Positions 14,943-42,871 of a stretch of 64,000 nucleotides of DNA are shown one piece after another; position 1 is the first letter of the stretch; the number at the start of each line of letters is the position of its first letter. The stretch comes from Tubiluchus corallicola (Eukaryota; Animalia; Priapulida). Below the pieces are notes generated by a model. That model was given only the letters and a program-made list of their open reading frames with translations, was not told where the DNA came from and searched no databases. The translations under genes were made by a program, and so were the position numbers. Where the stretch lies: assembly GCA_030141605.1 (NCBI GenBank), contig JAQGDQ010000378.1:162652-226651 (forward strand). The letters run 5' to 3'.

Positions 14943-15158
14943 CTACAACTTGTTCAACATTTCGTATTTCTGTTTGATGTCCATGTTTGGATTCAGTCGT
15001 GGATCCCTCCTCTTCTTCGATGTGAGCTGTGCTCGGAGCTGTTGAGCACTGAGCTGGAACACGTCACCGTCCGCCTGCGGTGCTGCAGCCGGTGGTGGTG
15101 TCGCTGCGGGTGCGGTCGCAGCTGGTGGTGGTGCTGATACTGTTGTCTGATCATTTCG
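14943..15158 (-). CDS. NHERF terminal exon: Pro/Ala linker and ERM-binding tail
   Basis: TAG acceptor at 15159; RNDQTTVSAPPPAATAPAATPPPAAAPQADGDVFQLSAQQLRAQLTSKKRRDPRLNPNMDIKQKYEMLNKL*; resembles the Sip1/EBP50 C-terminus. This frame is not in the ORF track. Confidence 0.9.
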   Translation of the reverse strand, partial: RNDQTTVSAPPPAATAPAATPPPAAAPQADGDVFQLSAQQLRAQLTSKKRRDPRLNPNMDIKQKYEMLNKL

Positions 15159-18100
15159 CTATAAAAGAAAAGAATAAAAAACTCAAACAATTAAATTGCA
15201 TTAATAAGAAGAATAAAGAAACACAATTGTCAACCTGAATTGGTGTGACAAGCATGCGTCAATGAGTGCGCAAAGGCACACATTACTCAAATGTGTTTGG
15301 GCACTGTTAACACAAACTGTTACCTAATAACTAATATCACTTTCATAGCTTGCAAATATTACAGTGTATAAAAATACACACTATATGCAAAAAATATACT
15401 ATATAGTAGTGTTGCTCCGGATACACTTTTTTTGCTGGGTAGCGAATACCGGATATCATCAAATATTTCCTCACGTTGACTTCGGTTAGCTAAATTCGGA
15501 TGGTAAATGCGGATCGGTTCGGATAATGAAAAAATAGTAAATTGTTTGCAAACTTTAGCTTTTTCATTTAGTCTGTCAAAAAAAGACTATCATCTTAAAG
15601 GACATACCCCGAAGACACACCGTGTTATCACACACAAACGAAAAAAGATGTGTGTAGAATTTTCGTCTTGAAAACACAAACATAGGCAATATTTTTAGTT
15701 ATTTTCGGCTGTTATTCGAAAACGGTTTTCAATTGCACATTACAAAAACCAGATAGCGAATATTTTCTAATGTCAAATTTTTATAACTACCGGATAATAT
15801 CGGATACGAATACTTATAGAATTTCGAGAAATATCACCATTTTCGGATACGAATCGGATATCCAGATCAACACTACTACATAGCAAGCGATGTTAGAGTG
15901 CATGACATTTTTCAAAACGTTCAACACGAACGGTAGCACAAATATAGGTGGATTAAATACCGCCTTTATTTACAGTAAAAAATACTACAAAACCACTTCA
16001 ACTTGCGCTTAGTTACCGTATAAAACATTAACAAAAGCGTTGAAAAACTATAATGAAATTAAACACAAGGTTTAGACATCGATTTGGTGCTGAACGGTGA
16101 AAAAACTGTAATATACCACCTATCACCAAAGATGTTTACTGCAAATGGCAAAAATTTGCAGATTTTCCGCTAAAAGCTTAAATTTTTAAAGAGTAGTGCA
16201 CCGACAGAAAACACAAACACTCTTGGCAACAAACGACAAGCAAGAAACATAAGTCATACGTATGAGAAAAGGCTTAAATTGCCATATTTTCACAACAAGC
16301 CTCAGTCACAATGACATACTAATGTACTAAACTGTGAAAGCTTTTTTGAGGAAGTTAACACATAAGCTGTTGCATACCAACTAAAAATATTACAATACAT
16401 AAAAAATTACATGCTAAAACTACTAAGTTACTAAACTGCGAAAGCTTTTCCGAGGAAGTTTAAATTACCGCACCAATATACAGTTATTTTACAAGCAAAA
16501 GTGAATACTGCATACCTCTACCTCTGGTTCACCGATGAGTCTAGAGCCAGGTCTTGGTACAGGTGTTTTTATGTATTGAATATTTCCTAGGTCTTTGCTA
16601 ACTTTGATGTCCCTAGAGTTGTAGTAACTGTCCGTAGCTTCGTCTACAACCAGCAGTTTGGTTTCATCTGAAATGGCCTTGATCTTCTCTACAACCTAGG
16701 TAACAAAAAAATTATGGTTGTCACTGTCCAAAACTTCACGATGCCCTAGGTTGATAGATCTTTCCCGCCCATGTGTATTGTAAATTTATGATTGGTTATG
16801 TACAGATTAAACAATTACTTGTGGTGTATTAGTATTACCTAGTAATATACTATTAACCTAGTTTCTATATGCTCATTCTTAATTACGTGCATATGAACTG
16901 CGCTTATATATAAGCAACAGATCTCAGTAACTGCCTGTGGTGTGTTATACAATACTGGTTTTACATGGATATGAACGGATACACATTTTCCGAGGAGAAT
17001 AAGAATTTTTTTTGAAATTGGGCAACTAAAACGTGGCGCCCCTCAAAACTTTGGCGCCCTAGGCTACAGCCTAGTTAACCTATTGGCTAATACGCCACTG
17101 GTAACGGGAAGGTAAATTTGATGACTGTTTCTAGGTTTCATTTTGTTACAAAATACTAACATTTAGTTTAAATATGCCATTTTGAATAAAAAAGTACCAC
17201 TACAATACATACATGTAAGTGAATAAGAGTTTATCACTCCAGGTACTAATATGAATTAGTGGTAAACGAAACAAAGCAGCATCATACAAAAACGAGAAAA
17301 AGTACAGAACGTTCTACCGTGCACCTGCGTCGGCTTAATAATAATTCTTTAAAGTTCAGAAGAGTATCATACGACATAAGAAAGCACAGGATTTTATCGG
17401 CTTACTGGCCAACTGGCATGGTACATGAATCAAGGTTGAACAAAGACCAATGCAAAAAAGTTATTATATCTCCTTGTTTAAAAACTGTTATCTGATTTAT
17501 ACTGTCAAAGGCCAGACAGACTTGGCAGTTTCGGCATTACTGTGTTCCATGGTCTTCCCTCATATGCTTGTATTATATGTGGACAGAATTCGTGTAAATT
17601 ACACAAAACATTAAGGCCACATGAAAACGGTTAGAAATCTCTGCTAAAAACAAGAATGTGGAATGGCCTACATTATGAGATTGAGCCATTACCTGTGAGT
17701 GTGTACAGTGCTCCACGTGGAATGGCCTACATTATGAGATTGAGTCATTACCTGTGAGTATGTACAGTGCTCCACGTCGAATGGCCTACGTTATGAGATT
17801 GAGTCATTACCTGTGAGTGTGTACAGTGCTCCACGTGGAATGGCCTACATTATGAGATTGAGCCATTACCTGTGAGTGTGTACAGTGCTCCACGTGGAAT
17901 GGCCTACATTATGAGATTGAGCAATTACCTGTGAGTGTGTACAATGCTCCACGTTTTCTTTATTCACTTCAATGATGCGATCACCTCTCTTGAGCCCGGC
18001 AAAATCCGCAGGACTGTCGGCATCAATGTCTCCCATGAATTCTCCACGGCCGGCCTTGTCTGCCACCAAGCTGAAGCCAAAGCCCGGGAAATCCGGCCAC

Positions 18101-21100
18101 TTGCAGACGTGGCAGTAGCGAGGCTGGGGTGCATCCGACGGGATGTTTGCTTCTCGTGGCGCTAATGTCTCCGGCGCACGATCCTAACAAGCAGCAAAGC
18201 AGTTTAATAACGGCAATGTTAGGATAAGACAAGCCAATTACCATGTCAGGCAACAATTGAAATTGAAAAAAGATAAAAAACAACATAGAACATTTTCAAT
18301 ATCAACGAATATCCATAGAAAACGCAGATTTTTCATTACCAACTTGATAACGCACAGTTAAAAATGATTTTCTCTTACTGCACTGGAAAAACTATGAAAA
18401 CCCATTAGTACCACGGCTATTTATTTTTTTCTGTTATTTGAGAAACTTATTTAGTGTGCGACATGTAATGAATTCGCACATGTGCCAGATAACAACTTGT
18501 GCATGAAAGAGAAAAAATAATTCACTATGGTACCATAGGGCTTCCGTTGGAAACTATTGTGAATTTATATTCATGAATGTTAAATAACTTAAATACACAC
18601 AAAAAATATAAAACTGAGCAACATTACAGCAAAGCAGATATGTACATAAACTAATGATTATCAATGTAATACGTAAAAAATAATTTAGAAGTTATTAAAC
18701 GTAATCCATTACCCAAACAAATTCAATTGCTGATAAAATGTGATTTAGTACATAGTAACACAAAACTAGCTAACAGATAGTTGCGGTGACCTTGAACAGT
18801 TAAATACACCCTTATTTTAACTACACCACCAATTTTACATAGTATCTAGTAAAAAAGACAGAAAATTGTTACAATTGTTTATGTTCTACAATCCAGTTAC
18901 ACCCAAAACATTATAAATGAATACATGTAATCAGAAAAGACAAATGAACATATAAAAGAGGAAAACGCCATCGATATGAAGTAAAAGAAAAATGTCGCTG
19001 AAGAAAGAAATGAAATTTTCTTTTTGCTAATTTGATGTTCGCAGCTCTTCGGAGCAAATAACATTCATTGCAGCAAGTACAGCTCAGAACAGCAAGAAAT
19101 GATAATGGCGTTTGAATGTATGGAAAATTGAAAGGCAAGCTTTCTCTAAAACGATTAGTCTGTAACAAGGCTAGCGTAAGAGATAATGGAAAACTCGCTA
19201 ACTTAAATAAGAAATGTAAACATTTTACGATTGCTAATGCTTGCAGGCATCACAATGGATACCGTTATGGACTAGCGACTTCAAGGACACAAATCCCTCG
19301 GGGCAAGAAATAATGCCAAATATCATCTTCAAATTTGTGCCAGGTATTTAGTTCAATACTGAAATCGTGGTACTGCTAAAAACATAAATGATATCATTAC
19401 AGGATTAAAAAAAACCATGGTTTTTAATTTAGCAGTATACCTGTATTTTAAAAACACTTTACAGAAAGCATAGATGTAAAAAAAGCATTAGTGAATTGAA
19501 AGGTCTTCAGAAACTGTGCGAGATTGAAACAGAGTTGTTCATATCTCAAGTACATTGCAAGAGTTCAGCCAGCCAAAAATATGTAATACGAGAACTATTA
19601 AACAGGTTTTGCTGAGATTAATATAACACACACTAGACTAGAACCTGCCATAGTTAGCATGTTAAGTTCTGAAAATTGTTAAGTTTTAAGAAAACTAATG
19701 AAAAATGTTAAGTTCTGCCAGATGAGACCTTCCAAACTTTGGCAGTCGACAGAAGTCAATTAAAGCAGAAGCGGTTAACTTGTACAAGCCATAAGAGAGA
19801 GAGACATTTAAGAATCGCTGGGTGATATATAAGTTAGGTGATGGCCATAGCTACCTCAATTAGCTGTTCTTCATTATACTCATTGGCCGGTACGATAGCG
19901 GAAGCCGGTCGCAACAGCGGCGTCTCAAACACCTGTATGCCATGCAGTCTCGAAGTCAATGGAATCCTCTGACTTTTGTATGTCAGGTAAGTGTCTTCAT
20001 CGGCAACAAGGAAAGTAACTGAGGTCGGACTTTGCTTTATGTACGTCTCGATTTCTTCGCAACTCCGTTTCTCGACATTAACCCCATTGACTTCAATGAT
20101 AAAGTCGCCCTGGGCCAGACCACCGGCTTCCGCTGGACTGTAGGCGTCCACTCTACCTATCATATCGATGCTTTGTGCCCTGTTGTACACCAGACAGAAT
20201 CCGTACCCTTCAAAATCTGGCCACTTGTGGATCTTGCAAAGTCTAGGCACGTTAACAGCCTCTTCTGCAGGCAGTATGTTAGTAACAGGAACCTTGCAAA
20301 AGCATATTGAAGATAAGAAGCAAATACTTACTGAGTTTTATTAATGCATGCATTCCCAAGCAAAGTAACATGCCACATCCCTATGCAGCAGCCGGCAAGA
20401 TATACCTTTCCCTGTATGACTATAACATTGGCCTATACAGGTCAGTTTGTAAGAAATTAATCCCTATATTCCCACGAATCTTGGCAGAGGTAATAATACA
20501 AACAAGTATACATACAGACATACTTGTTAGCCCAAGTGCATATTTACAGACCATAAATACTGGAAGGAAGTGTAGCGTCATATAATATTATAATTTAGCA
20601 GTTCATTACACCTATGATATTCACACGGGATTGTTTGTCATGTTCACAAACAAGCAAAAGGTCACTTCTGAATCATGCGGCCACACACCATCCCATTTTA
20701 TTCCTGTGATTCTCTTTGGAAGGCAATTTATACATAGCTCAAAGTGGAATATGACCCAAAATATCATGTAGTAAATGACATACGAAGTAGTGCGCTCATT
20801 GCTTTATTGTATTTATATGCATTTTATATATGATTACAAAACAATGTAGTAATTATTTATACACCTCGTATCTTACAAAATAGTACAGCAAGATTTGTAT
20901 AATAAGGTAAATATGCATTTTATATATGAATATGCTATGAAGAAATTATTTACACATCTTGTATCTTACAATATAGTACAGCATTATTTGTACAATAAGG
21001 TACTTTACAGCTACTATAAATATTATAGTGCATAACAATTATATACAATATATTTGGTAGCTTTCAACCGTTCAATTTCTATGTGTAACAACTGTGCGAT

Positions 21101-24100
21101 ATCCTTTCTATACTAAGATATTATACATAATATATATGGCTACGTTGAAAAAGTGTTTAACTAATATACTGTATTAAAACTGCTAGCGTGCGGCGGTAAA
21201 ATGGACTTCTAAATTCAAAGATTTCTGAATGCTTATCAAATGTATCACAGTCCAGGAGCAATACAGAACACATGAAATCTACAATAGCAAACTTTACAAC
21301 AACGTAGCAACATTCCAAAATTCACTATCTGCTTCTCAAAAACAGAACTAGAAAACAGTGACTGGGAGTGGGATACCATGTAGTTCCATGTGATCCACAT
21401 TCTTTGATTGATTCTACATCAACTTTTAGCCATGTACGAAAAATGTGCGAGAAAATGTCAACCAAATATACAACCTTTAATCATGTAAGTCCACCAGGTC
21501 AGTTCTTTTGAATTTGTCTTATTAGCAACAAATGTCGATAAAAGCACGAAGACAAAAGACAAATGTAGACAAAAGGCTCTCCAAGACCAGTAAAAATGTG
21601 GTGCTGTAAATCATCGACCGGAAAAAACAGCAAACATGGCTGCAAATGCAGCAGCTAGCGACAGTTCAATCTCTCAAATAGCAGCCTTTTCAACAAGTTA
21701 ATCAAAACTGAAAGTTATATCCCACAATGAGGCAATACTCTAGGAGCCGAGAAATATAGAAAGTTTAGCATTGTTCACGGTATTATTTGCAATGTATGAC
21801 ATTGGTTCTACATACCCAACGAAAATGTAAACTAACTTAATGACATAATCATGACATCATGACTCAAGTCATCATCATCTGATCATCTTACAACCCCAAG
21901 AAAACATTGAAAAAAAGAGTGTGAATTAAATCTCGAGAGTACGATGATCTTAATGCATCCCATAACTGTTACACTTTCATACGAATCAACACAAAAATTA
22001 ATCAACGGATATTAAATGGGAAGATATGAAAATAATACAGAAACATTCAAGAATGTACGAACGAACATTATGTTTGACGACATGTGACGCCAAGACATTA
22101 AAAAACGCCTTGTGTAATTAAACGCCTGCAAAACACCATAAAAATGTAATTAAATAACAGCAAAACACCAGCTAAACATCTCAATCTCAGTATTTACCAA
22201 CACCAACAACAGTTACAACACCCGTCACCGATGCTAGTCACAACACAATGTAATGAACATAGCCAATGCCCATTTCTATAGACGGCACATATACTAGAAC
22301 TGTCAGTAATCTAGGCAATATCTATGACTGGATCTATGAAGCTGAAACAGCCAATATAAACCTTGAACAGAACGAGGCCCCTACCACATAACATACCGGT
22401 GCCTCCAATAATTCCACATTTCTCAACTGAGAGGTTACTTTGATGTTACGCGAAGAATAATATTCGTCTGCTTCGGCGTCAACCACCAGGAAAACCACCT
22501 CGCTTGCATTAGCTTTAATTGCTTTAACGATGTCGAGATGCGATTTCCCGTCAATGTTGTCGTCATTAACCTCCACAATGCGATCACCAACTCGCAGGCC
22601 TCCGGCGTAAGCGGGACTTTCACTTTCGACCTTTTCAATATATTCAGCTTGCTTGGTTTTATCGTACTTAAGATTAAATCCATAGCCTTCATAGTTGTGC
22701 CACATGCAGATGGTACACTTGCGTGGTTTTGGTGCACCTTCAGCAATTTCACTTATTACCGACACTACCTATATTATTGAAAGCCTTATGTCAGAAACAA
22801 TGAAAAATATAGGAGGAATAATTAAAATAAACTGAAAAGAAAACTCATATATAATAAATAAAAATTTAATAAATATAAATAAAAATAAAATAGAAAGCAT
22901 GCATAAAGAAAAAATTCTCAATTTTTCACTAGAAGCAACTTAACATTGAGCAGCACTGCATCTAGAAATTGTTATAAGCTGCTATAAGCATAACTCAGCA
23001 TTTATTTGTAACACGAGAGCGAAAAACAGGATTGTTCTGCAAGCTTACTCTACTAACACACACAGCTAGCAGCGCAGGAGGATTGCAATACCTTACGCTC
23101 CGGTTCAGCAGTACCGGGTCTCGGAACAACCGTTTCCAAGTTCTCCACATTCTTTTGTTTAGAGGTGACAACAATGCCAGCAGCCGAGTAGTATGATTCT
23201 GCCTTCTCATCGACTACTAGCAAGGCAACCATTGCGTCATCAGTCCTGATCAGCTTGATCACTTCCAGATGAGATAGACCGCTAATGTTCGTACCATTGA
23301 CTTCTACAATTCGATCCTCGTCTAGAAGACCTGCGCTGTGAGCCGGACCATCCTCCTGGATTTGGGTAACTGTCTCCTGGTCTCCGGATTCGTCGTACTC
23401 TAACGTGAAGCCATATCCATCATAATCTGCCCACTTGTGAATGGTGCATAAACGAGGCTTTGGCGCATCCTCGGCAATTTCTTTTACTGCCTCTATTATC
23501 TGTCTCCGAAGAACAAATAATGCTAAAGTTGTGTTAGTAAAAAGCAAAGCATAAAATAAACAAAAGGATAAACAAACAAATAAATAAAGCAAAGGAAAAG
23601 AAAAACTTGCTTTCTATCAACAGCTTTGCAAACATGCATAACAAAAACTGATTTTTTTATTAAAGTGAACCAAAATTGTTAGTAGGCATGGATTATGCTT
23701 GCAAAAAACAGATTACTAAAGATACATGCTGCCCCCTGCATTACCTAGTCGCTTTGGAACTCCGCTTTAAACAGCTTTTAAAAATTTGCAACATTTAAGA
23801 TGAAAACTGCAAATACCTGCTCCGCTACCCTGGCAGGTCTAGACTCTGGTGTTTCAATTCGTTTAATATTTGGCAAGTTGGTGGTAACTGTTATGCCTCT
23901 GGATGCATAGAACTCATCAGCTTCTGGGTCAACTACAAGGAAAGTAGCACGACCAGCGACCGTCTTGATAACATCGATGACCTCCTTATGACCTTTATCT
24001 TCAATATTTTGTCCATTCACTTCAACCACGCGGTCATTTGTCCGCAGTCCACCCGTCTCTGCCGGACTGTCTGCTTCAATGTCACCGATAAACTCCTGCT

Positions 24101-27100
24101 CTTTGACTCTGTCATACTTCAAATTGAATCCGTAACCCTCGTAATCCGGCCACTTATGAATCGTGCATAATCGGATTTCTGGAGCATCATTCAAAACCTC
24201 TTCTACCCTTTCTGCTACCTGACCAACAAAATAATGTTGAGAAAATAAACACGATTATTTGTTAGTATGCAGCTCATACTAGAAGCTTAATGTCGACATC
24301 AGATTAAAAGATTATTTGACATGATAAATGTCAATTAGTCATTGCGCTTGTCAAGAAACAGAGAATAGTTAATCACTACTAATCTTTTTACATTTGTACA
24401 TCTGAAAATAACTTTGAAAAAGAAGTGAATCATTGAAAAGAAAATTCATAACCATGCGAACGGCGAATGTGATTTTTTTTGTGGTTGTACTCTACAAGAC
24501 ATTAGTTACGAAAAGCTAGCGACACAGTGTCTACAAACGATGCAGCTCGGCAGCTACAATGCCTCCTACCTTTTCTTTTATAAGAGGCGTTTCCAGTTTC
24601 TCAATATTGTCCATACTAGAAGTTATTGCTACACCACGAGAGGTATAATATGCAACTGTTTTCAGGTCAGCAACCAAGAACACGACATGGTCAGTGTTAG
24701 ATTTAATGATGCCAACTATATCACTATGCGATTTGTCTTCTACGTTTTGCCAATTGACCTCAATCACACGGTCACCACTTTGCAGGCCACCAGATTCGGC
24801 TGGACTGCCCGATTCTACACTTCTGATAAGTTCGAATTTCTTATCCTTGTCGTACTGAAGGTTAAAACCGTAACCTTCATAGTTTGGAAGTTTGCGAATT
24901 GTACACAGACGAGCAGATGGTGCAGGACCCTTAAATGTACAAACGACAAAGAAATGCACAGTGTTAAAAGCACCGAAAGTTAACCCATCATAAATAATCT
25001 AATGCCATTGAAATGCAGTTATCAACAAATTTACTCACACAATCACCTAAAAATACAATCGTCTGTAAAGTAATAAGTTTAGCTGCTTCATTTAATTAAG
25101 CTTCATCCTAAAAAAGGTCTTCCAATAAACTAAAATAAACCGGTAACTAAAATATTCTGTATGTACAAGCAAACCGAAAACACCATTAACCTATAAAGAA
25201 CTAATAATTAACATAGCTCACTATCGCAAATGTTATGCATGGTCGTTCTTGAAACGAAAATCAGATATCAGCAAAAATGTTGATAAGAGAGTTAACTGCA
25301 AACGATTTAATTACTAACACAAATAGCTTTACAGATGCCTGCAACACACATAGCTAAACAACATCACTGCTTAGAAGACGAGCACCACATTCAACCTCAC
25401 TTGACAATTTTTGCCAGATCTTCTGCACCATTTATAACAAATGTCACAAACCAATTTGTTATTTATAAAAGACTATTACTTAACTCTTTCATAAGAAACA
25501 TTAAGAAACAGTAGCTAAGATATAAAAAGCAAATAATAATATAGGTAATTTAGGCATTACTCGAGAAAGGTATCTTTGAGATTTAAGCCAAAAAATGGTG
25601 ATTCTCAAAAATTGGGGCTGGAAAGACAAACATCGACCATGTATATAAGATATGTGGCTGGCAAAAAGCTAACTGATCAAAACAAATCTCAAACAGACAT
25701 TTTGCAACAGTGCACTTGCAAAGCCCCATATTGAAATACTTATCAAGTAACTGAACGAGACAAAACTGTCGGTAAAGCACGAAGTACATCTCAGCTTTAC
25801 TACAGGCAGACAGCATTTGTAACAAATGTCACAGCTAATGATTCGATCTCTAAGGAAGAGACAAGGAGACAGCAGAAAATATCGACTACAGGCTTTAACT
25901 ACTAGCACACAACTGAAGAACACAAAAACCAAGAGATTTACAATGTCATACGAGAACATGAGCAACACAAGAGATCATGTGCCAACGGTTATTTCTAATC
26001 GTAACTACCAGACAGACAAACATAAAACATAAGACAGTACGATAAGCACTGTTAAAAGTGGTGCCATACGCAAGACGAATACATCAACGTACCTCGGCCT
26101 CCCTAACTGGCGTCTCCAGTTTTTCGATATTTTCCATACCAGATTTTATCGTGATACGACGAGCCTTATAATGAGCAATAGTCTTTGCGTCGGCAACCAG
26201 GAACACGACATAGTCGCTGTGAGACCTGATAAGGGCGACAATTTCCGTATGGGATTCTTCCTCGACATTGCGACCATTGACTTCTATGACTCGATCGTCC
26301 GACCGAAGGCCACCGGCCTCTGCTGGACTTCGTGGTTCAACGTTACGAATACTTTCGAATTTTTTGTTCTTGTCGTAAAACAGATTAAAGCCGTAGCCCT
26401 CGTAGTCAGGCCACTTGCGTATAGTACATTGTCGAACGGAGTGAGTAGGTGCCTTTAATATTGAAAACAAGGCTACTTCAATAAGGAGTGGGAAGAAAAT
26501 ATAAACACATTAAAGTATTATAATAGCCTCCTCATAATGTCTCATTTTAGCCGACAGAAGAAATGACAATTTTTTAATTTACTACTTTAATTTGTTTAAA
26601 TTCACCAGTAGATATCGTTTACACCAAATTTAAAAAAAATGTTAATATGTCGAGATATTTTTACATACATTTCTTTATGTCTACAAAACCAATTGAAAAA
26701 GTTAGAAATATATGTTTAATAACAAACGGTACAATGCAACAACATGAATTCTGAGCTATAACACGACAAGCTAACTAAGCCAGTTCTAGACAAAATATTC
26801 TTTAATTGTAACCTCATTTTGGTCATATTTGTATTAGTTATGTTTGTATTAGTTATTTGTTTTAGCTGTTTGTTTTAGTTAATTAAAATTCAGGAGCTAC
26901 TTCGCCTCATTTTGGTGCTGATGATCTATAATAATAAATTAAATCTATTCTCCTGAATCTCACAAAATGGGCAAAAGAAAACATGAAACTTTATCAGATC
27001 GTCATCGGAAAAATGGAAGGCATCAAATACTACGGTGACAATTATATATGCATAACATACAGCATAAAATCTCGATACAATATGGTCAAAAGAAGCTTTG

Positions 27101-30100: not shown

Positions 30101-33100
30101 CACATATTCCTGCTTCTCCAACTTGTTAAATCGCAGAGCAAAACCGTAGCCCTTATAATCTGGCCATCTATGTATAACGCACTCCCGGGGTGGCTTCACT
30201 CCTGTATATACCTTCAAAGTCGTGAAACGAGAGCTTGTTTAGTTTACTTATAAGAACTACTCAATACAATATTAAACCAGTGGAAACTGTGAATGTATAA
30301 GCTTTTTTGTTCTTACCTGATTCAGAATGTAGTTAATGAAATGGACTGTACAGCTAACACCAACCTAAGCTTCTAGTAAATGCAAAATTATCCATTATAA
30401 TGGTCATCTAGTTAGCGAAAACCGGTTGCGAAGATAGAAAAATTTCAAAATTTGGCTAGGGAGTTTGGACACAACTGATGCTAATTTTGCAGTTTTCTGA
30501 ATGTGTAAATTTTACATTAACCTAAAAAAATGAAAAAGTTGCAAGAGCACTAATGAAACCAGAAGTTTTTGTCCAATTTCAATCTTAACAGAAATTGACC
30601 AAGTACATTAAGAGACGTGTTCACCTAGCGATGAATGTTTAAAGGCAAATGTAACCAATGGGGTTAATAAAATACCTGAACTTTTCCGGGTTGATTCTCT
30701 GGTGTTTCTAGTCTTCTAACGTTTGGTAACTCACTACTGACATTAATCTTCCGGGCACTGTAATAAGATACAGCTTCTTTACCAAGCACCAGAAGTGTCA
30801 CATGGTCTTCAATAGACTTCACAAGTTCTATTACATCTGCATGCTCGGCTCCCACAATGTTCTTTCCATTCACCTCAACGACTTGATCATTTTCCAACAG
30901 ACCGGCTAGGTCGGCTGGACTGTCAGGTGTCACCTTGTTGACCATTTCAAATTTTTTATCCTTTATGTACCGCAGTGTGAAGCCATAACCACTAAAGTCT
31001 GGCCATTTACGAACCAAACATTCTCGAATCCATGGTGCACTGGTCGGAATAACCTTTAATTTTTATTTGTAACAATTATTTTAAAACAAATGGCAATTTT
31101 AGCAGTAAACGTAGAGGTAACAGTACATGTACACACCAACCACTTAACAGATGCAAATGTACTACTAATAAAAACATTAAAAACGTCTAGCTCTAGCATA
31201 TGCAAACATTGGCCATTAACACTGCCATACTTATGAACTGCTTTCAAAATTGACAGCTAAAATGAGAAAAATTTTGAGACCGCAACACGTTCATATATAG
31301 ATGAACTTCAAGACCCGTGACAGACAACAGAGTGTAACTGTAATTCAAGTAGCTGCCTGACAAATACCATATTTATGTACACAATAAAAGCAAGCATTAA
31401 ACTCATGCAAGGCAAATGATTTGATGAACACTGGATGCAAAGGACTGTGCAGCAACTGCAACAGCAACCTGGTTGCTAATAGACAAAAAGCTAGTGTTCC
31501 AACAGGACAGAAAGTAGTGTAGCAGCTATCAGAAAGTCACAAACATGTAACAAAACGTAATACTCATCATACGGTATCTGGTTGCTCTTCTGGAGTCTCT
31601 AGTCTTGTCACCTTCAATCGCGCCGTAATCGGCATGTTACGAGACTGAAAGAATTTAAATGCTTCCGAATCGACAACAAGGAATGTCACCCGATTAGGGT
31701 TACTTTTAATATTGTCGACGACTTCCTCGTGTGACAGCCCCTCAACATTGGTTTCGTTAACTTCGACGACACGATCGCCAGCAAGAAGACCGCCCGCATC
31801 AGCAGGACCATCAGCTTCCACGTTCCCAATATATTCCTGATTTTGGTCTTTCTTGTATTGCAGCGTGAATCCGTACCCACTGTACTTTGGCCACTTTCGT
31901 ATGGTGCAGTGTCGTATAGGTGGCGTGTCCTCTTCGCTGGCTTCCGGCTCTTTTTCAATCTCATTGACTACTGCCTTTAATGTGAATTAACTGTTTGTAA
32001 TACATTTATAACAGGCAAGCAGCAACGCGGTGCAGCTATCTTATTTTCTGAGCTGACTAAAATAAGCCAAATTTAAACAGCCCAAATTAAGTAATAACAC
32101 AGCTATAACCATTTGGCTAATACATCTGTAATTATGATCCCCAAGTAGATGTAACAAAAATGGCAATGCGTTTGAACCTAGACAGGATAGGATCACTACT
32201 CATGACTGAAGATTTGACACTGTTCAGTAAGCTATTGTTTTAACAAAGAAATGCAAGTAAAAAAATGTAGCCAGTGATAATTCCAGCCACTGAGATTCAT
32301 AGTAGGAAACACCATCAAATTTAATGACGTCTTTTAGCAAGGGATATCCAAAATATGAATGGTTTATTTCCCTTTGATTATAAAAATAACAAATAGTGAA
32401 CCAAGTTCAATTTAAGTTGTAATTCTCATAACAACCTGTCTAAAGGTGTTCAACGAATGTGCTGTTTACAATTAGCTTTATTCATTGGCTATGAATGGCG
32501 ATTAATGTTAATAATATACCTACCACATCTTTCCGAATTTAACCTTATTGCTACAACTATATTCACTTTAGCCATTCATAGTGTCAAATATAGCAGTTCG
32601 TTTGCTACTTTTGGCAAGTAGCACCTATCTATGTGGTGCTAATGCCCATAAAGCACCTATCTATGTGGTGCTAATGCCCATAAAGCAATTCTGAGTGGCT
32701 TGTGAAATGAAGAGACTATAAGCTAGGAATTGAACATAACATGATAAGCATTCTGTTGTAATTGAAAACATAAAAAATTGTATTTATACATACCTGCAGA
32801 AACATCACTTCCTACATGTTATTAAAAAAAACTTAGTGTAACAAAATAATGTAACCAAGACGTCCAACAATTTGTAATCTCTCCCTCCCCCCTCCCGTAA
32901 TGTAGAGCTAATAAGAAAAGCAAGAACAACTGCCAAACTTGAGTGAGTTTGTAGTTTCAATTTGGCTAGAAGGAAATATACCTGCAGAATAAAATGTCAG
33001 GCAAATAATATTGTGAAACAATTCATTCACACAGTTCGAAAATGGCAACTGCACACATGTAGCATCATCGGGCTGTTAAGGAAGTGTGTAAATTACTAAA

Positions 33101-36100
33101 TAGTATTTATTACAGAACTGCTTTAAGTTAGTTTGATCTGTGTAAGCTAGCTAATTTGGCAAACTTTGCTGATTTTTTCTGCCATTAAATGACAGAAGCA
33201 GTTAGAAAATTCAGGCATGAAGCTAAAGTGACTCAAGATTGGAAAATTTGATAATCCTAAACTGAGATTTAAATTATAAAAAATACAGGCAACAAAAGTA
33301 TGAAAAAACATATCCTCACCTGGACAACAATTCCGTCTGCATCACCATTTTCACGCGGGCGTGGCACGGGCGTGGCAATATACTCGATGTTGTCAAGTGC
33401 GCTAGAGATGGGAATGCCACGAGCCCTGTACTGCTCGTAAACGTCACTGCTGACAACCAACATTTTAGTTTCACTTGGATTCGATTTAATCTTGTTGACC
33501 ACATCCATGTGAGGAAGACCCTCCACGTTGTCACCATTGACCTCGATGACTCGGTCGCCCTTCCGCAACCCACCCATGTCAGCCGGACTGTCGTGGTCAA
33601 CATCACCGATGAACTCCTGACTACTACTCTTATCATACTGGAGATTGAAACCATATCCCTCGAAATCCAGCCATTTCCTTATGTGACAGAGTCTTGGGGC
33701 TGGCAGCGTGGAAACGGCAAGATCCGCAATGGCAGCTGTTACCGCCTCCACCTAAATAAATAAGAGACAAGCCACCCTAAATACCTAAATTTCTGTGTAC
33801 AATTAGTTTCTAGAATATCCACAAGATTTTTACCACCCCTTCAAATGTGTTGCATTTGTCCCATATAAGCTCACCCCAATTTCCAAGTAAGAAGCTGATT
33901 TTCTGTATTTAATGTTCAAGGTTAGTCCCTAAACTTCACTTGAAGAATGAAATGTCTCATGACAATGTTAACAGCAACATAATAAGCTTGTTGGTGAAAT
34001 TACTGCAAACATTGGCAGATCACAATTGTACGTGCTGTAAATACGACAATTCAACTAATAAGACACCAAAGCCGAAACTGTGCAAAAGAATAATTACGTA
34101 AGTATTTGAACGGAAATTTCAGAAACATTAGCTAAGCAAACTAACACATAAACTATAGGAATTGAACAAGATTGTCCCAGAGTTGTAGCAAAATGGTAAG
34201 TGGTATAGTGAAGACATCTAAGAGAAGAGCAGCGAGGTCATGAAGAATGTCACTTCAAAGTGGCACAGAAACACAACGTTGACAATGTACCCTTACTTTC
34301 GTAGGTTCACTTTCCTCGCTCTGCAGCGATTCGGGAGCTGAGGGCGCATCACCACCCTCAACGTGGACTTCACCAGTTTCAGCAGAAAAGGACCCATTTA
34401 CCTGGCCGGGCCGTGGTCGGGGTACGGGCGTCTTGATATACTTGATCACCCTCATCGAGCCGTCAATGGGTATCCCGCGTGAATGGTAGAAACTATCTGT
34501 ATCTCTGTCGACGACGAGCAGCTTGGTCTCATGAGGAATTGCTCGAATCTTGTCTACAACCTGTTGAACAAAGAGACAATGTTTAGTGCAGCAAACAACC
34601 ATGAACATCCACACAAAGACTTATTACGACTGAGAGGGAGCGTTATAACAGCTGCACTCCATTGCTGCAATTGGTTGAGCAAAAATCTTTGCACAAAAGC
34701 ATCTCAGTAAAAAACTCTAAACATTTAGCAAACAGCAAATTTCAAACTAAATGTGCCGTAAGCAAAGATCTACTTCAAATGAAAATAAAGATAAAAACTA
34801 AAGATTAAAAAAAAAGATATACTAAAGATGGCAACTACTGTCGCAGATTTCAGCCGCTGAGGCACAGGGGTATGACTGACAGAAATATTTGGTTAATTGC
34901 TATCTTTAGTATACTAGTAGCATAGTAACTCCTTTCTTTTTCTATTTCAATTCCAATTTATTTAATGCATGAACAAACGAAGCTCTTCATAAGCACCTTA
35001 ATAAAGTACAGTCACATCTCTTTACACCACAGCTTTGGACATTAAGTGAGTCTGACATTACAAAGAGGTGCATTAATACATACATGTCTATGCAAATATA
35101 GGCCAAAAATGTGGGCGTTAAGCAAGGTCGGCATTAGAAAGGCGGGGCAATATAACTGTACATAGCATTCAGTTAGTTTGATAAATTTACTGTTTCATAG
35201 TTTCATCAGGAACTATGACTAAGCATTTGCATGTAAACAAGACATAAGAGAAATCAAAAAGTCATTCTTACAAATGGTGTGTAGAAATGAGAGCATCTTA
35301 GGTTAACATTTTAAAAAGCTTACACAAGGCTGTACTTTGTAGACTACAGTCAATCAGTACGCAACCAGTAAAGTACCAAAACACATAAATGACTGACATT
35401 TTCAAGTTTTGCCGCATCAGATAGCAAGGGTGTACATCAAGTAGCTATCACACCAACACAAATGTCAAATCAAATATAAATATTTACAAGGTAAACAATA
35501 AACTGCTTCTTGTTTACAAAGTGAAATTTTATTTGTCTGCAGGCAAATTTGATTTCATTATGGCACTTCACAATCCATCATTTTCCGCTATTTACGTTTC
35601 AGTTTTCCGCTTCCACTATTCTTCCTGTTAGGTGAAGTAATTACGTCGCCATCGAGTTCACAGCTGGAATAACAGGGATTAAGGAGACGATTAGGGATTT
35701 AATGTAATTAGTAATCTGTTTAAACAACTGACAGTCATATGTGGCCGAGCAGGAAACAGACCACCACACTGGCAGCCCTCTCAACTGTGTCTGCACACAT
35801 ATTCTAGGAGGACAACCAGGAACTTGTTACGCATGTTGTGTGCAATGGGGCAAATGCAGGCAATAGATCCACATTACAAATGCAGACCAACATTAAAGGA
35901 CATTCAGTTCTAGCATTCACTGAAATTTTTTTTATCGTATCCTTGCATTAATTAAATTCATCCTTCATCATTCTTTGAGCACTGGGACACTTTAAACTTT
36001 TAACTCTGCCACAACATTTGACGTAAAATTCAAGGTAATATGATGAATGTCTGCCACAATATTTGATATAAAATTCAAGGTAATATGACGAATGTATCAC

Positions 36101-39100
36101 TTGCGTATTTTGTTTGATAACTCAGTATTGGCCAACAAATGCATTTTGACAGATAAACGTAACGCATGAACACCCTTTTGCTAAACAGATTACTCATGAG
36201 TTTATTCATCGGCTGTTTGAAGTATCTTGCGTACTAGACAGTAGGTTCTATGATTAAGACCTGTTTTACACTTGTCTCACATAAGCCTCAGTGTTGCATT
36301 CAACAACAAGGATCTACATCAGATAAGCACTTAAATGTAGGGAATTATAGAGAGCTTCAACAACTGCGTAATGTGTAAGATAAAGACCCAGTAAAAAATA
36401 GAATGAAAGACTGCAACGTTTTAGATGTTTCCGAAGATTTTCTCAACATATGAGTTTTTTGTATGATGTCGGACATCAGGCAGGGGTAAGGCGAGCCTTA
36501 GAAAGCTACTTAATAATCCTAACTGTATTATTAAAATTTTGACACTAATAACTGTTTACCTTTTGTATAAAGAAGCAGATTGCTACACACTTCAGGCATT
36601 ATAACTTAGTGCTACATTTGCAAATTAATATAATTCAGAATCCATGCAGCTTAAATTCATCAAACATAAGCTGTTGACGTTCATAAATAATAATAATTTA
36701 TCGCATGTGTAAAACGCATTAACATTAAAATAGACAAATACATTTTACATACACGAATCATACCATAACATACATACATAAACACATAAACAGAACATAA
36801 ATACTAGATTATTTTAAACTTCAAACTTACTTCACCCAGCAAACTACAAATTACAAATAGAAATTTACAACATAGCTGAAGAAAAACAACACAAAAAATT
36901 AATATATTTACACTACAAATAGTAAAGCTGTGTGGCTCAGGAGACCTAAAAATGGCAAAACAGCCGCATAAATAAAAGGTGATTAATTAAAATAAATTAA
37001 AAGATTTAACAAAGCTAAAATCGTATACATGTATATAAAATCGCTAGAAATCAGCCCCCAAAACCAGTACTTTCAGTCCCTAATAAATTTTTAATTAATT
37101 AAAAAGGCAATTAAAGTTCTAAGAAATGATTTGTAGTTGTCAACATTGGTCATTCTATGTGCATAAAATGGTAAATTGTTCCATAATTTTGGTGCTGCTA
37201 CACAAAAAAAAACTATGAAATCCATACATGACTAGATTACAACACGGGTCGGTACAACAAGAGTCAATGAGCTAATTGATCCAAGATTATTACCTGAGCA
37301 TGAGGTAAATTCTCTACACACTCTCCATTTACTTCCACTATCCGGTCTCCATTTACCAGACCGGCCATGTCAGCTGGACTGTCCGACTCCACAGATCCGA
37401 TAAACTCCGCCTGCTTCTCCTTTTCGTATTGCAGGTTGAAGCCGTAGCCATCGAAGTCGGCCCACTTGACGAGGTGGCATAGTCGCACAATGGGGGCATC
37501 GTCCGGGAGCTCCTATAATTCCAATATGCAGTAATGTTTTATGCAAAGAAACAAATGTAACAACCTTGGCAAATACGTACTGTATGCCATTACCGCATAG
37601 CTCGAGATTAGTTTATTTTTCTCTCATTATGAGTGCAAGGTAATCAGTACTAAACAAGACTGTTTGCAAGGTTAGTGCCCCTAGGAAAGTTACACAGTTA
37701 CTGGCCCAGACTTAAGAATGCTGGAAAACTACTGACATAGTCCGTTCACTGCTGCATTAAATGCATTATGTGGAAACTTCCATTTAACTTCTATTGCCAG
37801 ATATTTCCATTTTTAAAATCAATCAAAAACAGAAAATCACACTTTTTAATGTAGATAAATTGAAAAAAATTGGAAATTTGTAGGAAAATAAAAAGGAAAG
37901 AGTTTACAATTCCCCACACAATTTAAATACCCTAGTCCTAATTCTAACCCTAACGCAAAGTCTAACTATAATTTCGTTTCACGAACTAATTTCCTGTGTG
38001 TGTGGACAATTGTAAACTTTAGCCAAAAATTTTACAAAATAACAACTACAAGAACTTTAGGTCTTTCATATTATTAATACTTTCACATCAGCTTAGAAGT
38101 GAGTGCCAGAGAAAAATTTTTAAATTTATAACAACATAAAAAAGCTATGGATAATATATCAATCAAAAACTACACTGCCTAAACCATTATAAATGCTGTA
38201 AAAGCCATAGCAGGTAAAAAAGATACCATCAATCTTACTATATCGCTAATCTTGGCCATACAGTTAACAATGAAAAATAAAAGTTTTTCAATATCAGGGT
38301 CTAAGATTAGTGAACTGTCCTTCTTTTGCTCTAGTGGTTCATAAAACGCTTCGTGGGCAGAAAAACAAACTTGAAAAAAGACTACTTGAGCCGAGTATAT
38401 CAGTGAAGTTACAAACATTTCAGGAATTTGTAATGATAAAGCTAGCAACCATTGTATGCACAAGGACATACTTCAGAGCCATAAACCTACCTAGATGTTC
38501 TGACTTTTTTTATAACGGTTGTTTGCACAGCTACAGTAGCACGATGCCTTATCAGCTTTTATCCTGGACTGTGGGACAAAATAAATAATCAATTTTTGTG
38601 CAATCAGACATACTGACAGTAGGTCAACTGCATTAATGTTGGCATAATAATCATTGTGGGGCACATGTGTAATGAACTACACTAGGCACAGGTGTGCTTG
38701 CAGTTATTAGCCAGATTTTTGAGTTATCATAGCTCACTTAATGTATGATATAATGAAAAAAGTGAATTAATAAGAAATTTGTTTGCAGTCCATATTATTT
38801 TCCATATTTTCGTTATCTTTATGTAGTGGTCTCAGTTACTGTACCCGACAGTATAACCCAACGCCCAAATATAATCATGCAAAGCAGCTTCGTTGCTGCT
38901 CTTTGTTTTTTTGCTTGTTAAACAAGGCCTAAATTCAGATTACATTTTCTATATACAGCTTTAATTTAAATTTGGTAATTATTTTTTGCACATAAGTCTT
39001 AAATTTGCTATTATTAAAACTAACATACAAAGCAGAGTTTAAAAAAATTTGGACCGAGCAATCACGTAACATAGAATCATTAGAAACGAGCAAAACTGCA

Positions 39101-42100: not shown

Positions 42101-42871
42101 CACTGCAGTTTCCATTTTTATGCAGGGAATATGTGTTTTTATGTAACAACGATATTCAAAAATTAATAAATTGGAAATGTTTTGGGAAACTGAAGTTTCT
42201 GTAGCCCAAAAGTTAATTAGTAAAACTGCACAAGAATTTGCTTTTTCTAAGTACAAGTGTGTGATGTCATAATGTTATCAAATTGTTTGCACTCAAATGA
42301 TGAAATGTTGAAGGTAAATGGAAGTTTAAAAAAATTAATAATGTGCAATCTATAAAATACATTTTAAAAGCATTCTATAGTCTATGACAAATTACAATGG
42401 ATGTGATTTCAAAAACGTATAGAAAATGCTACAACTTTTGTCTCCAAAATAACAAGACAACTGTAGTCTTATACATACCCTAATTTCATGATTGACTGAG
42501 CCTGGTGTTTCTGGTGTGGACAGCAAGAGGACATTATTCTGTGTTCCTTTTACGACAATTTTTCTAGCTTTGTAGTACTCGTCCGTGGCTGTGTCGACCA
42601 CCAACAACTTGGCTTCATCGGGAAACTGTTTAACTCGTTCCACGACCTGCCGGTGGTTCTCGTTGGCGATGTTGATGTCGTTGACTTCAACGATGCGATC
42701 CCCGGCTTTTAAGCCGGCCGCTTCGGCAGGTGAACCTGGGTCCACTTTTCCGATGTACTGCCCAGGCTTGGACTTGTCAGCACGCAGGTTAAATCCATAT
42801 CCTTCGTAGTGTGACCATTTTACAATCCGGCACATGCGAGGTGCAGGCGCATCAGGAGGAATATCTGCCAT
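14943..42871 (-). CDS. NHERF1: NHERF/EBP50/Sip1-family scaffold with 17 PDZ domains and C-terminal ERM-binding motif (20 coding exons, about 2298 aa if all included)
   Basis: ATG at 42871; all 19 coding introns are phase 0 GT-AG; each PDZ shows the NHERF signature PRLC..KW..Y.GYGF.L...SPA..GL..GDR..EVNG.NV...H..VV..I...LLVVD; last exon ends MDIKQKYEMLNKL* like NHERF1 MDWSKKNELFSNL. Symbol is family-level; orthology to a specific vertebrate paralogue is not established. Confidence 0.88.
15407..15875. mobile_element. hAT-like MITE in last NHERF intron
   Basis: TIR TAGTGTTGCTCCGGATA ... TATCCAGATCAACACTA; 8-bp TSD CTATATAG/CTACATAG; many internal CGGATA/CGAATA motifs. Confidence 0.8.
16516..16695 (-). 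CDS. PDZ17 second half exon
   Basis: VVEKIKAISDETKLLVVDEATDSYYNSRDIKVSKDLGNIQYIKTPVPRPGSRLIGEPEVE; TAG acceptor, GTATGC donor; 180 nt. Confidence 0.88.
17030..17100. mobile_element. hAT-MITE terminal fragment
   Basis: GGCGCCCTAGGCTACAGCCTA...TAATACGCCACTG resembles the right ends of the MITEs at 6846-7208 and 12176-12751; matching left end not found. Confidence 0.4.
17657..17953. repeat. 59-bp x5 minisatellite spanning the PDZ17a exon-intron junction
   Basis: Unit GTGGAATGGCCTACATTATGAGATTGAGCCATTACCTGTGAGTGTGTACAGTGCTCCAC; minus-strand CAG|GTAAT donors at 17929, 17870, 17811, 17752, 17693. Confidence 0.95.
17929..18183 (-). CDS. PDZ17 first half exon
   Basis: DRAPETLAPREANIPSDAPQPRYCHVCKWPDFPGFGFSLVADKAGRGEFMGDIDADSPADFAGLKRGDRIIEVNKENVEHCTHSQ; 255 nt. 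Confidence 0.88.
19855..20292 (-). CDS. PDZ16 exon
   Basis: VPVTNILPAEEAVNVPRLCKIHKWPDFEGYGFCLVYNR...EEQLIE; AAG acceptor, GTAGCT donor; 438 nt. Confidence 0.82.
20815..21002. repeat. About 96-bp imperfect tandem duplication
   Basis: ATATGCATTTTATATATGA...GTATCTTACAA.ATAGTACAGCA...AATAAGGTA occurs twice. Confidence 0.7.
22397..22768 (-). CDS. PDZ15 exon
   Basis: VVSVISEIAEGAPKPRKCTICMWHNYEGYGFNLKYDK...ELLEAP; TAG acceptor, GTATGT donor; 372 nt. Confidence 0.82.
23092..23499 (-). CDS. PDZ14 exon
   Basis: IIEAVKEIAEDAPKPRLCTIHKWADYDGYGFTLEYDE...AEPERK; CAG acceptor, GTATTG donor; 408 nt. Confidence 0.82.
23817..24218 (-). CDS. PDZ13 exon
   Basis: VAERVEEVLNDAPEIRLCTIHKWPDYEGYGFNLKYDR...RVAEQ; CAG acceptor, GTATTT donor; 402 nt. 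Confidence 0.85.
24570..24929 (-). CDS. PDZ12 exon
   Basis: GPAPSARLCTIRKLPNYEGYGFNLQYDK...PLIKEK; AAG acceptor, GTAGGA donor; 360 nt. Confidence 0.85.
26093..26452 (-). CDS. PDZ11 exon
   Basis: APTHSVRQCTIRKWPDYEGYGFNLFYDK...PVREAE; AAG acceptor, GTACGT donor; 360 nt. Confidence 0.85.
27482..27850 (-). CDS. PDZ10 exon
   Basis: GPAPSARLCTIRKVPDYEGYGFNLHYDK...AQIPEQ; AAG acceptor, GTATGG donor; 369 nt. Confidence 0.85.
28040..28399 (-). CDS. PDZ9 exon
   Basis: GPAPSARLCTIRKVPNYEGYGFNLQYDK...PLVEQE; AAG acceptor, GTATGC donor; 360 nt. Confidence 0.85.
28572..28931 (-). CDS. PDZ8 exon
   Basis: Protein identical to PDZ9; AAG acceptor, GTATGC donor; 360 nt. Confidence 0.85.
29104..29463 (-). 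CDS. PDZ7 exon
   Basis: As PDZ8/9 except SNHVV for SDHVV; AAG acceptor, GTATGC donor; 360 nt. Confidence 0.85.
29843..30211 (-). CDS. PDZ6 exon
   Basis: VYTGVKPPRECVIHRWPDYKGYGFALRFNK...TKPIE; AAG acceptor, GTATGT donor; 369 nt. Confidence 0.82.
30676..31053 (-). CDS. PDZ5 exon
   Basis: VIPTSAPWIRECLVRKWPDFSGYGFTLRYIK...PGKVQ; AAG acceptor, GTATTT donor; 378 nt. Confidence 0.82.
31573..31974 (-). CDS. PDZ4 exon
   Basis: AVVNEIEKEPEASEEDTPPIRHCTIRKWPKYSGYGFTLQYKK...EEQPDT; AAG acceptor, GTATGA donor; 402 nt. Confidence 0.82.
32620..32686. repeat. 32-bp perfect tandem duplication
   Basis: AGCACCTATCTATGTGGTGCTAATGCCCATAA x2. Confidence 0.9.
33320..33751 (-). CDS. PDZ3 exon
   Basis: VEAVTAAIADLAVSTLPAPRLCHIRKWLDFEGYGFNLQYDK...DGIVVQ; TAG acceptor, GTGAGG donor; 432 nt. 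Confidence 0.88.
34297..34560 (-). CDS. PDZ2 second half and linker exon
   Basis: VVDKIRAIPHETKLLVVDRDTDSFYHSRGIP...TPVPRPRPGQ...EESEPTK; CAG acceptor, GTAAGG donor; 264 nt. Confidence 0.85.
36005..36095. repeat. About 45-bp tandem duplication
   Basis: TCTGCCACAA.ATTTGA..TAAAATTCAAGGTAATATGA.GAATG x2. Confidence 0.8.
37294..37512 (-). CDS. PDZ2 first half exon
   Basis: ELPDDAPIVRLCHLVKWADFDGYGFNLQYEKEKQAEFIG...ENLPHAQ; TAG acceptor, GTAATA donor; 219 nt. Confidence 0.88.
38915..39828. mobile_element. Foldback/long-TIR non-autonomous DNA element
   Basis: Arms about 38915-39179 and 39577-39828 are imperfect inverted repeats of about 260 bp (TTGTTAAACAAGGCCTAAATT ... AATTTAGGCCTTGTTTAACAA; CACAAATTTGAACATTCATTGT ... 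ACAATGAATGTTCAAATTTGTG). Confidence 0.8.
42479..42871 (-). CDS. First coding exon, PDZ1
   Basis: MADIPPDAPAPRMCRIVKWSHYEGYGFNLRADKSKPGQYIGKVDPGSPAEAAGL...NHRQVVERVK...HEIR; CAG acceptor at 42888 just upstream of the ATG; GTATGT donor. Confidence 0.9.

Follow-up and report, generated by a model that had tools for sequence, protein, structure and literature searches.

An NHERF/EBP50-family gene of the priapulid Tubiluchus corallicola with an array of thirteen optional whole-PDZ exons

Introduction

The NHERF/EBP50 proteins are among the best-studied membrane-to-actin adaptors and have been described with one or two PDZ domains, or with four in the tail-less PDZK1 branch. NHERF1/EBP50, NHERF2/E3KARP, Drosophila Sip1 and C. 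elegans NRFL-1 share NHERF-type PDZ domains and a C-terminal tail of the ERM-binding type, which in this family binds the FERM domain of ERM proteins. Here we analyse a gene of this kind in a 64,000-nucleotide stretch of the genome of Tubiluchus corallicola (GCA_030141605.1, contig JAQGDQ010000378.1, positions 162,652 to 226,651), which as a whole is called the window below and supplies all coordinates. Whereas NHERF1/2, Sip1 and NRFL-1 have one or two PDZ domains, this gene has four core units and thirteen optional ones.

PMC4603932 describes a single form of the NHERF gene in invertebrates, and PMC3419730 reports single- and double-PDZ splice variants of C. elegans NRFL-1, of which the double-domain isoform is dominant. 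EBP50 connects PDZ ligands (transporters, receptors) with active ezrin and is needed for microvilli, according to PMC2958488 and PMC4603932. PDZK1/NHERF3 and IKEPP/NHERF4 contain four tandem NHERF-type PDZ domains, the same count as the shortest form of the window gene, but theirs is fixed, unlike the count reported here. An engineered chimera of PDZK1 and the EBP50 tail, cited in PMC2958488, rescues microvilli, and its layout is the four-PDZ-plus-tail layout of that short form. MPDZ/MUPP1 and PATJ carry at least ten PDZ domains in one chain and have many splice isoforms, in which they resemble the kind of gene described here; such scaffolds bear an L27 domain (PF09045) and lack an ERM-binding-type tail. 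Tandem-duplicated, symmetric, alternatively spliced one-domain exons are familiar from the length tuning of titin and nebulin and from the Dscam1 arrays. In titin they set the length of a sarcomere spring and in Dscam they offer a mutually exclusive choice, whereas block inclusion in the window array would alter the valency of a cortical adaptor.

The account that we favour, and consider rather probable, is that the window contains one NHERF/EBP50 gene in which core units and a predicted ERM-docking tail flank 13 cassettes and splicing likely sets the valency of the scaffold, from four PDZ domains up to at most 17. A sequence-only reading of the same DNA had proposed a giant 17-PDZ adaptor. 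The optional cassette array, absent from that reading, is more notable than the size, and a 17-PDZ protein marks the upper limit of what the gene could make rather than a product that was seen.

Results

One gene encodes 17 NHERF-type PDZ units

The window was searched by six-frame translation and with a profile built from its own PDZ units. The minus strand contains 17 units from 42871 to 16516, and with this profile nothing else scored in the rest of the 64 kb on either strand. They belong to a model of 20 coding exons, all 19 introns of which can be placed at GT..AG borders in phase 0. The joined coding sequence (6897 nt, or 2298 amino acids plus stop) runs from an ATG at 42871, two codons downstream of an in-frame TAA, to a TAG at 14943 with no internal stop, and has the C-terminus KKRRDPRLNPNMDIKQKYEMLNKL. 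Pfam PF00595 matches all 17 units above its cut-off (E 2.8e-15 to 2.6e-8), and together with the profile this bears out the 17 in-frame units and 2298 amino acids of the earlier reading; with donor 16522, which both RNA sources introduced below use in place of 16516, the length becomes 2296 amino acids (~255 kDa).

Fifteen of the units occupy a single exon each. In PDZ2 and PDZ17 an intron interrupts the unit, at the same position in both; their first exons alone were enough for PF00595, and their second exons had no Pfam match. Each of PDZ4 to PDZ16 is one symmetric exon (phase 0-0), so any subset of these inner units keeps the reading frame. Below, PDZ1, PDZ2, PDZ3 and PDZ17 are called the core, and PDZ4-16 the 13 inner cassettes.

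In the PDB, PDZ1 matches NHERF1/2 best (E 4e-28 to 5e-22), with PDZK1 (1e-15) and others behind; together with one start, one tail and the joins seen in RNA, this upholds the earlier assignment to a single NHERF/EBP50-family gene. The G-Y/F-G-F (GYGF/GFGF) loop of a class I groove is present in 17/17 units and the alphaB1 His in 16/17; these features serve the -S/T-x-L tails of transporters and channels, and the residues lining the groove vary from unit to unit. With 17 PDZ units in the gene and four in the shortest form seen, the protein falls outside the one-or-two-PDZ range of the EBP50 group, an excess that is a variant architecture and not a loss of NHERF orthology. It is not of the PDZK1/NHERF3-4 type (four PDZ domains without the tail), having an EBP50-type tail, nor of the MPDZ/PATJ type: the start exon is a PDZ exon with no L27 match, and MPDZ-type units reach ~20 bits each against the NHERF-type profile where Priapulus units reach 110-140.

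Relatives skip and include whole PDZ exons

Three sequence sources bear on splicing. Run X1 behaves as DNA (~99% identity to the window), with pieces over several cassettes and introns. Run X2, taken as RNA by guess, comes from a relative of the window organism (~90-94% DNA identity in exons). P0004 is an 890-aa spliced protein on a 3120-nt Logan contig, 84-96% identical to the window in protein; since it is unlike X2 in the tail exon and PDZ17, it presumably derives from a further taxon.

In X2, a GT..AG joint connects PDZ3 directly to the first half of PDZ17 (18182-33319), skipping 15,136 nt and with them all 13 inner exons. Other canonical X2 joints link the two halves of PDZ17 (16693-17927), the second of these with the tail exon (15158-16522), and the two halves of PDZ2 (34558-37292). 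A loose contig end mapping uniquely to the end of PDZ3 (33331-33348) points to a further junction from PDZ3 to PDZ13; this match abuts 11 letters of the PDZ13 piece that overhang its acceptor, and 0 of 100 shuffles match. A second loose end maps uniquely to the end of PDZ1 and indicates its joining to the first half of PDZ2. Beside the skip joint, X2 carries pieces of PDZ4, a PDZ7-type unit, PDZ11, PDZ13 and PDZ16, so skipping occurs in an organism that possesses those exons. No X2 cover was found on PDZ5, PDZ10, PDZ14 and PDZ15, contig holes being no proof of absence; an apparent X2 depth at PDZ5 came from a misplaced PDZ2 piece and vanished on a second mapping.

P0004 reads PDZ4 (in part)-11-12-13-14-15-17-tail, with PDZ5-10 and PDZ16 missing, and all eight of its junctions match predicted exon borders; inner exons are thus spliced both among themselves and onto the tail exon, as had been expected. 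Of the 19 junctions that the 17-PDZ form requires, the two sources together show 8 and lack 11, alongside four skip junctions (3 to 17 and 3 to 13 in X2; 4 to 11 and 15 to 17 in P0004), every sighting being in a relative. The inner exons of these relatives are optional: they enter transcripts in blocks, as cassettes, and do not exclude one another. The computed forms are 650 aa, ~71 kDa, with four PDZ domains; 1418 aa, ~157 kDa, with ten, if the P0004 form starts with PDZ1-3; and 2296 aa with 17.

The single constitutive product of 2298 amino acids put forward by the sequence-only reading fares poorly here. It would require that all 20 exons are normally joined into a ~255 kDa, 17-PDZ adaptor or spacer. 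All frames are indeed open and in phase, six inner cassettes stand together in the transcript P0004, models of the Priapulus gene have 10-11 PDZ domains in a row, and the skip joints are known from relatives only. Yet the four skip junctions leave out PDZ4-16, PDZ4-12, PDZ5-10 and PDZ16, X2 skips exons that are also present in X2, and more than half of the joints that the full form needs (11/19) were not seen, which makes a constitutive giant improbable.

The same transcripts speak on a Dscam-like array, in which one inner PDZ per transcript would vary ligand specificity at fixed length. Tandem homologous symmetric exons, a PDZ3 donor that joins different acceptors and groove-lining residues that differ among units would all suit it. 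However, P0004 has PDZ4, 11, 12, 13, 14 and 15 in one frame, which largely refutes it: six cluster exons in that mRNA and none across the X2 skip joint (both in relatives), against the one per mRNA of a Dscam1-type cluster. Priapulus models, too, combine 6-7 inner units, one of the forms seen has no cassette at all, and no convincing docking or selector inverted repeat was found among the 25 longest of 239 pairs in the window, judged without a shuffle control. We give mutual exclusion hardly any credence.

Cassettes and core also differ in their acceptors, which end in AAG at 10/13 cassettes and at 0/6 core exons (Fisher p=0.003). AAG acceptors are weaker than other acceptors; two of them are in use in P0004.

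Several further observations concern these transcripts. An X2 joint goes back by 3371 (26093 / 29463), from the PDZ11 donor to a PDZ7-type start; it is most simply PDZ11 to PDZ12 as in P0004, because PDZ7- and PDZ12-type exons start almost alike, and a circular RNA (back-splice) or another exon order in the relative is possible. X2 pieces read through the PDZ12 donor (24535-24570, minus strand), where translation would run into ...HRL-stop in X2 as in the window, and start upstream of the PDZ16 acceptor (20292-20356, minus strand); they may be nascent RNA or else tail-less or alternative ends. A 59-nt repeat that includes the end of the first PDZ17 exon and its 5' splice site stands in five copies at 17658-17954, which creates four extra CAG/GTAAT donors downstream; X2 uses the first donor. 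At 33676 an X2 loose end carries 23 loose letters that look like an Illumina small-RNA adapter, in keeping with X2 as an RNA library. By eye, a possible non-coding first exon lies at ~48300-48080 (minus strand), ending AACAG/GTATGT at 48080, and could splice to an acceptor at 42887, just upstream of the ATG.

Cassettes are intact and partly young, and Priapulus has a like array

In DNA, PDZ7, PDZ8 and PDZ9 share 98-99% of their letters, a difference near the ~1% that separates X1 from the window (9/758 letters over PDZ4), so the safe PDZ count is 15-17; these three units could include an assembly or copy-number effect. Their 1-2% difference, near the allelic level against X1, would also suit separate paralogues or stacked haplotypes mistaken for one locus, as would the X2 pieces that pass the PDZ12 donor and start upstream of the PDZ16 acceptor. 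Such an origin of the whole array is very improbable: there is a single start exon and a single tail exon, the parts are connected in RNA, protein identity among the other 14 units is 32-93%, and DNA-like X1 pieces match at ~99% over PDZ3, 4, 13 and 14 and nearby introns (X1 may be the window's own source).

All ten pairs among PDZ7, 8, 9, 10 and 12 have a dN/dS of 0-0.16 (0.09 for PDZ7 vs PDZ12). Four of the five pairs with PDZ11 are saturated, as are the synonymous sites of the older cassettes, whose frames are intact. Counted over the best-supported subset of differences, changed codons between X2 and the window are synonymous in 17/24 cases in PDZ16 and 8/8 in the first PDZ17 exon, and 12/18 exonic differences between X1 and the window are synonymous.

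These figures bear on the main rival to our account, namely that the four-PDZ form does the work and that tandem exon duplicates, prone to slippage, enter transcripts at a low level without regulation and are merely kept from doing harm. Tolerated duplication of this sort would fit the fast turnover of the array, separate in each lineage, the near-identity of PDZ7-9, the many AAG acceptors and the fact that regulation is not demonstrated in contig data; loss of the whole gene is viable in C. elegans, according to PMC8860247. Against it stand a dN/dS of ~0.1 among young copies, the intactness of 13/13 cassettes though most are saturated at synonymous sites, the retention of binding residues in 12/13, and the persistence of the array in Priapulus and at least three closer taxa. 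We regard it as unlikely.

The ancestry of the units was followed in a main tree of 84 rows (units of the window, P0004, P0157, Priapulus and outgroups), which gave long-branch warnings, and in a repeat tree of 48 of these rows, from which long branches, several outgroups, PDZ9 and the units of P0004 had been removed. The larger tree puts PDZ1 beside Priapulus PDZ1 (99/90), within arthropod-type NHERF units; the remaining units of the window and Priapulus and those of P0004 and P0157 make up a single group (99/86). Within it, PDZ17 pairs with the last Priapulus unit, PDZ11 (100/90), the inner units of the window and Priapulus group together (82/97; SH-aLRT 97 in the 48-row tree), and each species has lineage-specific young subfamilies (98/93; 96/80). 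The 48-row tree does not resolve the wider non-PDZ1 group. The four core units defined by RNA are the four that fall outside the inner group. P0157, a 7205-nt Logan contig with a single-PDZ frame grouping with the Priapulus inner units, probably represents a single cassette exon in the genome of a further priapulid.

The Priapulus units belong to LOC106807044 of Priapulus caudatus (XP_014664746.1 and isoforms X2-X5), labelled 'uncharacterized', with 11 PDZ domains and the same tail. Its PDZ1 is 71% and its last PDZ 64% identical to those of the window, and it is likely the orthologue. It has 7 inner units against 13 in the window, amplified separately according to the trees. Two of the five predicted isoforms, X4 and X5, are each short of one complete inner PDZ. 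No paper on a Priapulus NHERF turned up among those searched, the locus being a database prediction only.

For a wider view, 228 proteins were fetched by word searches, cluster look-ups and a profile search (150 best of 19,632 hits), a best-match sample and not a census. Among them 55 have the ERM-binding-type tail: 48 with 1-4 PDZ domains (43 of the 55 have 1-3), two with 7 (P0004 and P0005) and five with 10-11, all five being isoforms of the single Priapulus gene. The units of P0005 do not belong to the priapulid group, which points to an expansion of their own. Oikopleura and rotifers have NHERF-like chains without a tail, with 6-9 units that score more weakly (P0020, P0170, P0171, P0006, P0177, P0178). 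The PDZK1-like proteins P0025, P0026 and P0028 have no ERM-binding-type tail by the tail profile described below, and the units of P0028 fall outside the priapulid group in the 84-row tree, on long branches. Expansion of NHERF-type PDZ domains thus seems to have happened several times, and the suggestion that the large gene is unique to its lineage fails on the 11-PDZ Priapulus orthologue with its identical tail type and on P0005. The companion statement, that no NHERF this large has been described, still holds: no many-PDZ NHERF was found in print among titles and abstract starts, in a search largely outside subscription journals.

The tail is homologous to the NHERF ERM-binding region

The sequence-only reading had called the tail an intact ERM-binding one; homology now stands, while the family's own Pfam model does not recognise it. 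The tail exon gave no match to EBP50_C at E<=0.1 and no meaningful match among PDB sequences. A tail profile was seeded with two fish NHERF1 sequences and grown on non-priapulid rows among the proteins fetched. This independent profile recovers the window tail with E 0.64 as the seed, 1.2e-6 at 15 rows, 3.3e-15 at 35 and 9.6e-17 at 40, on which ground we count the tail as one of the EBP50 type and, by sequence, as homologous to the NHERF ERM-binding region.

Motif-1 of the EBP50-type tail is given as MDWxxxxx(L/I)Fxx(L/F) in PMC3419730. The last 13 residues of the window protein, MDIKQKYEMLNKL, retain its M, D and final L, with hydrophobic replacements at the other three places, W by I, L/I by M and F by L. 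In C. elegans the last 28 residues of NRFL-1 are required for ERM-1 binding and apical location (PMC8860247), and the NRFL-1 tail MSLNEKYQLVSNM strays further from Motif-1 than the window tail does; since that more divergent tail binds ERM-1, ERM binding of the window tail is to be expected. By analogy it is predicted to dock on activated moesin or another ERM protein at the apical cortex. The C-terminal -FSNL of EBP50 binds its own PDZ2 (PMC2958488), whereas the window tail ends -LNKL, without the S, and so head-to-tail self-binding is likely absent.

An AlphaFold2 model of P0004, built on a shallow 27-row alignment, shows each complete unit as a confident PDZ fold with an extra helix and strand (pLDDT ~85-97), low-confidence linkers, a pTM of 0.32 and a C-terminal helix at 880-889. 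The model fits beads on a string, though the units may pack. It gives no support to the rigid rod implied by a long-spacer role, within the limits of that pTM and alignment depth.

Exon inventory and surroundings of the gene

All exons lie on the minus strand. The start-codon exon with PDZ1 (42479..42871; best PDB match NHERF1 2kjd, E 4e-28) is joined to the next by the X2 loose end. The first half of PDZ2 (37294..37512) is joined in X2 across 2733 skipped letters, GT..AG, to the second half with its acidic linker (34297..34560), which has a possible internal phase-0 donor at 34402 and whose junction with PDZ3 was unseen. The PDZ3 exon (33320..33751) has the donor that branches toward PDZ17 or PDZ13.

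Three optional cassettes with AAG acceptors follow: PDZ4 (31573..31974), with an X2 piece at 31640-31835 and joined to PDZ11 in P0004; PDZ5 (30676..31053), with an open frame and no junctions seen; and PDZ6 (29843..30211), with X2 depth in its bin and no junctions seen. The young cassettes PDZ7 (29104..29463; X2 piece 29120-29419), PDZ8 (28572..28931) and PDZ9 (28040..28399) form a tandem of 532-nt units; PDZ8 is 99% identical to PDZ7 and PDZ9, and PDZ9 encodes the same protein as PDZ8 with five synonymous differences. PDZ10 (27482..27850) is a cassette of the PDZ7-12 family (dN/dS 0.09-0.12; no junctions seen). PDZ11 (26093..26452), 92-96% identical to its P0004 counterpart, has P0004 junctions from PDZ4 and to PDZ12 and the X2 joint to a PDZ7/12-type start, and PDZ12 (24570..24929) has P0004 junctions on both sides, from PDZ11 and to PDZ13. 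PDZ13 (23817..24218; CAG acceptor) is reached straight from PDZ3 in X2 and has P0004 junctions; PDZ14 (23092..23499; CAG acceptor) has P0004 junctions from PDZ13 and to PDZ15 and an X1 DNA piece; and PDZ15 (22397..22768; TAG acceptor) is joined in P0004 to PDZ17 with PDZ16 skipped. PDZ16 (19855..20292), the sole unit with Cys at the alphaB1 His position and therefore the one predicted to deviate in specificity, is covered by X2 pieces, with no spliced junction seen. In the core again, the first half of PDZ17 (17929..18183) is linked in X2 both with PDZ3 and with its own second half and is present in P0004; the second half (16522..16695) ends at the RNA-used donor 16522, with 16516 as the alternative. 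The terminal exon (14943..15158) encodes an Ala/Pro linker, a basic stretch and the ERM-binding-type tail.

Convergent with the gene lies the 3' part of a Vps39-type zinc-finger gene (840-9771, plus strand; zf-Vps39_C E 5e-9), presumably TGFBRAP1-like. Upstream, on the same strand, is a gene with a coiled coil and IQ motifs (~49650-64000, minus strand; PF00612 E 1.6e-9), which we take to resemble IQCE. As both flanks are unrelated genes, the start exon and the tail exon of the locus are the only ones of their kind. By eye, 46937-47700 (minus strand) looks like the decayed reverse-transcriptase end of a LINE-like element; a short interstitial TTAGGG run lies at 4432-4458 and a 126-nt duplication at 44924-45179. 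Rfam gave 0 matches in the window.

Discussion

Domain-number expansion by exon duplication is already known, and an 11-PDZ orthologue stands unremarked in RefSeq. What is new is an NHERF in which an array of exons, each a whole PDZ, is optional; Priapulus has an array of the same kind. In the mechanism that we propose, the PDZ3 to PDZ17 splice seen in relatives' RNA would give a 650-aa, ~71 kDa form with four PDZ domains as the default; the weaker AAG acceptors on 10/13 cassettes would make skipping the rule and inclusion a regulated event. The tail would bind the ERM FERM domain, and the 16 units that keep both loop and His would take up -S/T-x-L tails, as in other members of the family. Units would behave as independent beads on a flexible string and not as a rigid spacer, and through avidity longer isoforms would gather more cargo, perhaps also of other kinds, on each ERM anchor. 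The most likely site would be transporting epithelia such as gut, protonephridia and body wall, where the priapulid protein would link PDZ ligands to ERM proteins much as EBP50 does. As for its history, one intronless PDZ exon related to PDZ3 may have founded the array in a priapulid ancestor; this founder cassette would have been amplified separately in each lineage, with duplication still ongoing at PDZ7-9.

A number of points weigh against this account. Both RNA sources are relatives, none being from the window's own organism, and X2 is counted as RNA by guess only. The relatives' genomes may lack or reorder exons, and the PDZ4 to PDZ11 junction of P0004 could reflect absence and not skipping. 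The short side of the X2 links measures 30 letters for PDZ3 to PDZ17 and 29 for PDZ3 to PDZ13, where the bridge rule is 31; 30 letters is presumably what a 31-mer graph yields at a branch. In the second of these links the X2 sequence beyond PDZ13 is unseen. Contig depths, at 328 for the PDZ3 to PDZ17 joint, 160 for PDZ3 to PDZ13 and 34-75 for inner pieces, are unfit for ranking isoforms and were used neither for that nor for copy number; the same holds for X1 depths of 31-64 over PDZ7-8 vs 8-19 on the listed single-copy exon pieces. The enrichment of AAG acceptors is inflated by the cassettes' shared ancestry, and the ultrafast bootstrap of the inner group is only 82. Binding of ERM proteins and ligands by the window protein is a family-based prediction, and tissue-regulated inclusion is a proposal that goes beyond contig data.

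That proposal can be put more strongly, as a splice-programmed valency dial running from 4 to as many as 17 PDZ domains, with blocks chosen by cell type and setting the density and mix of transporters per actin anchor; this we offer tentatively, as one possibility. Function throughout is inferred from the family. With up to 17 PDZ domains, 13 of them optional, the gene indicates that NHERF valency is open to evolution and probably also to regulation. It also offers a live case of an exon array, with an old core, one founder cassette, two separate amplifications and copies still arising. If the dial is real, priapulids would provide a natural series on how scaffold valency relates to apical clustering and microvillus form, and their 4-, 10- and 17-unit forms could separate avidity from reach in microvillus rescue after EBP50 knockdown.

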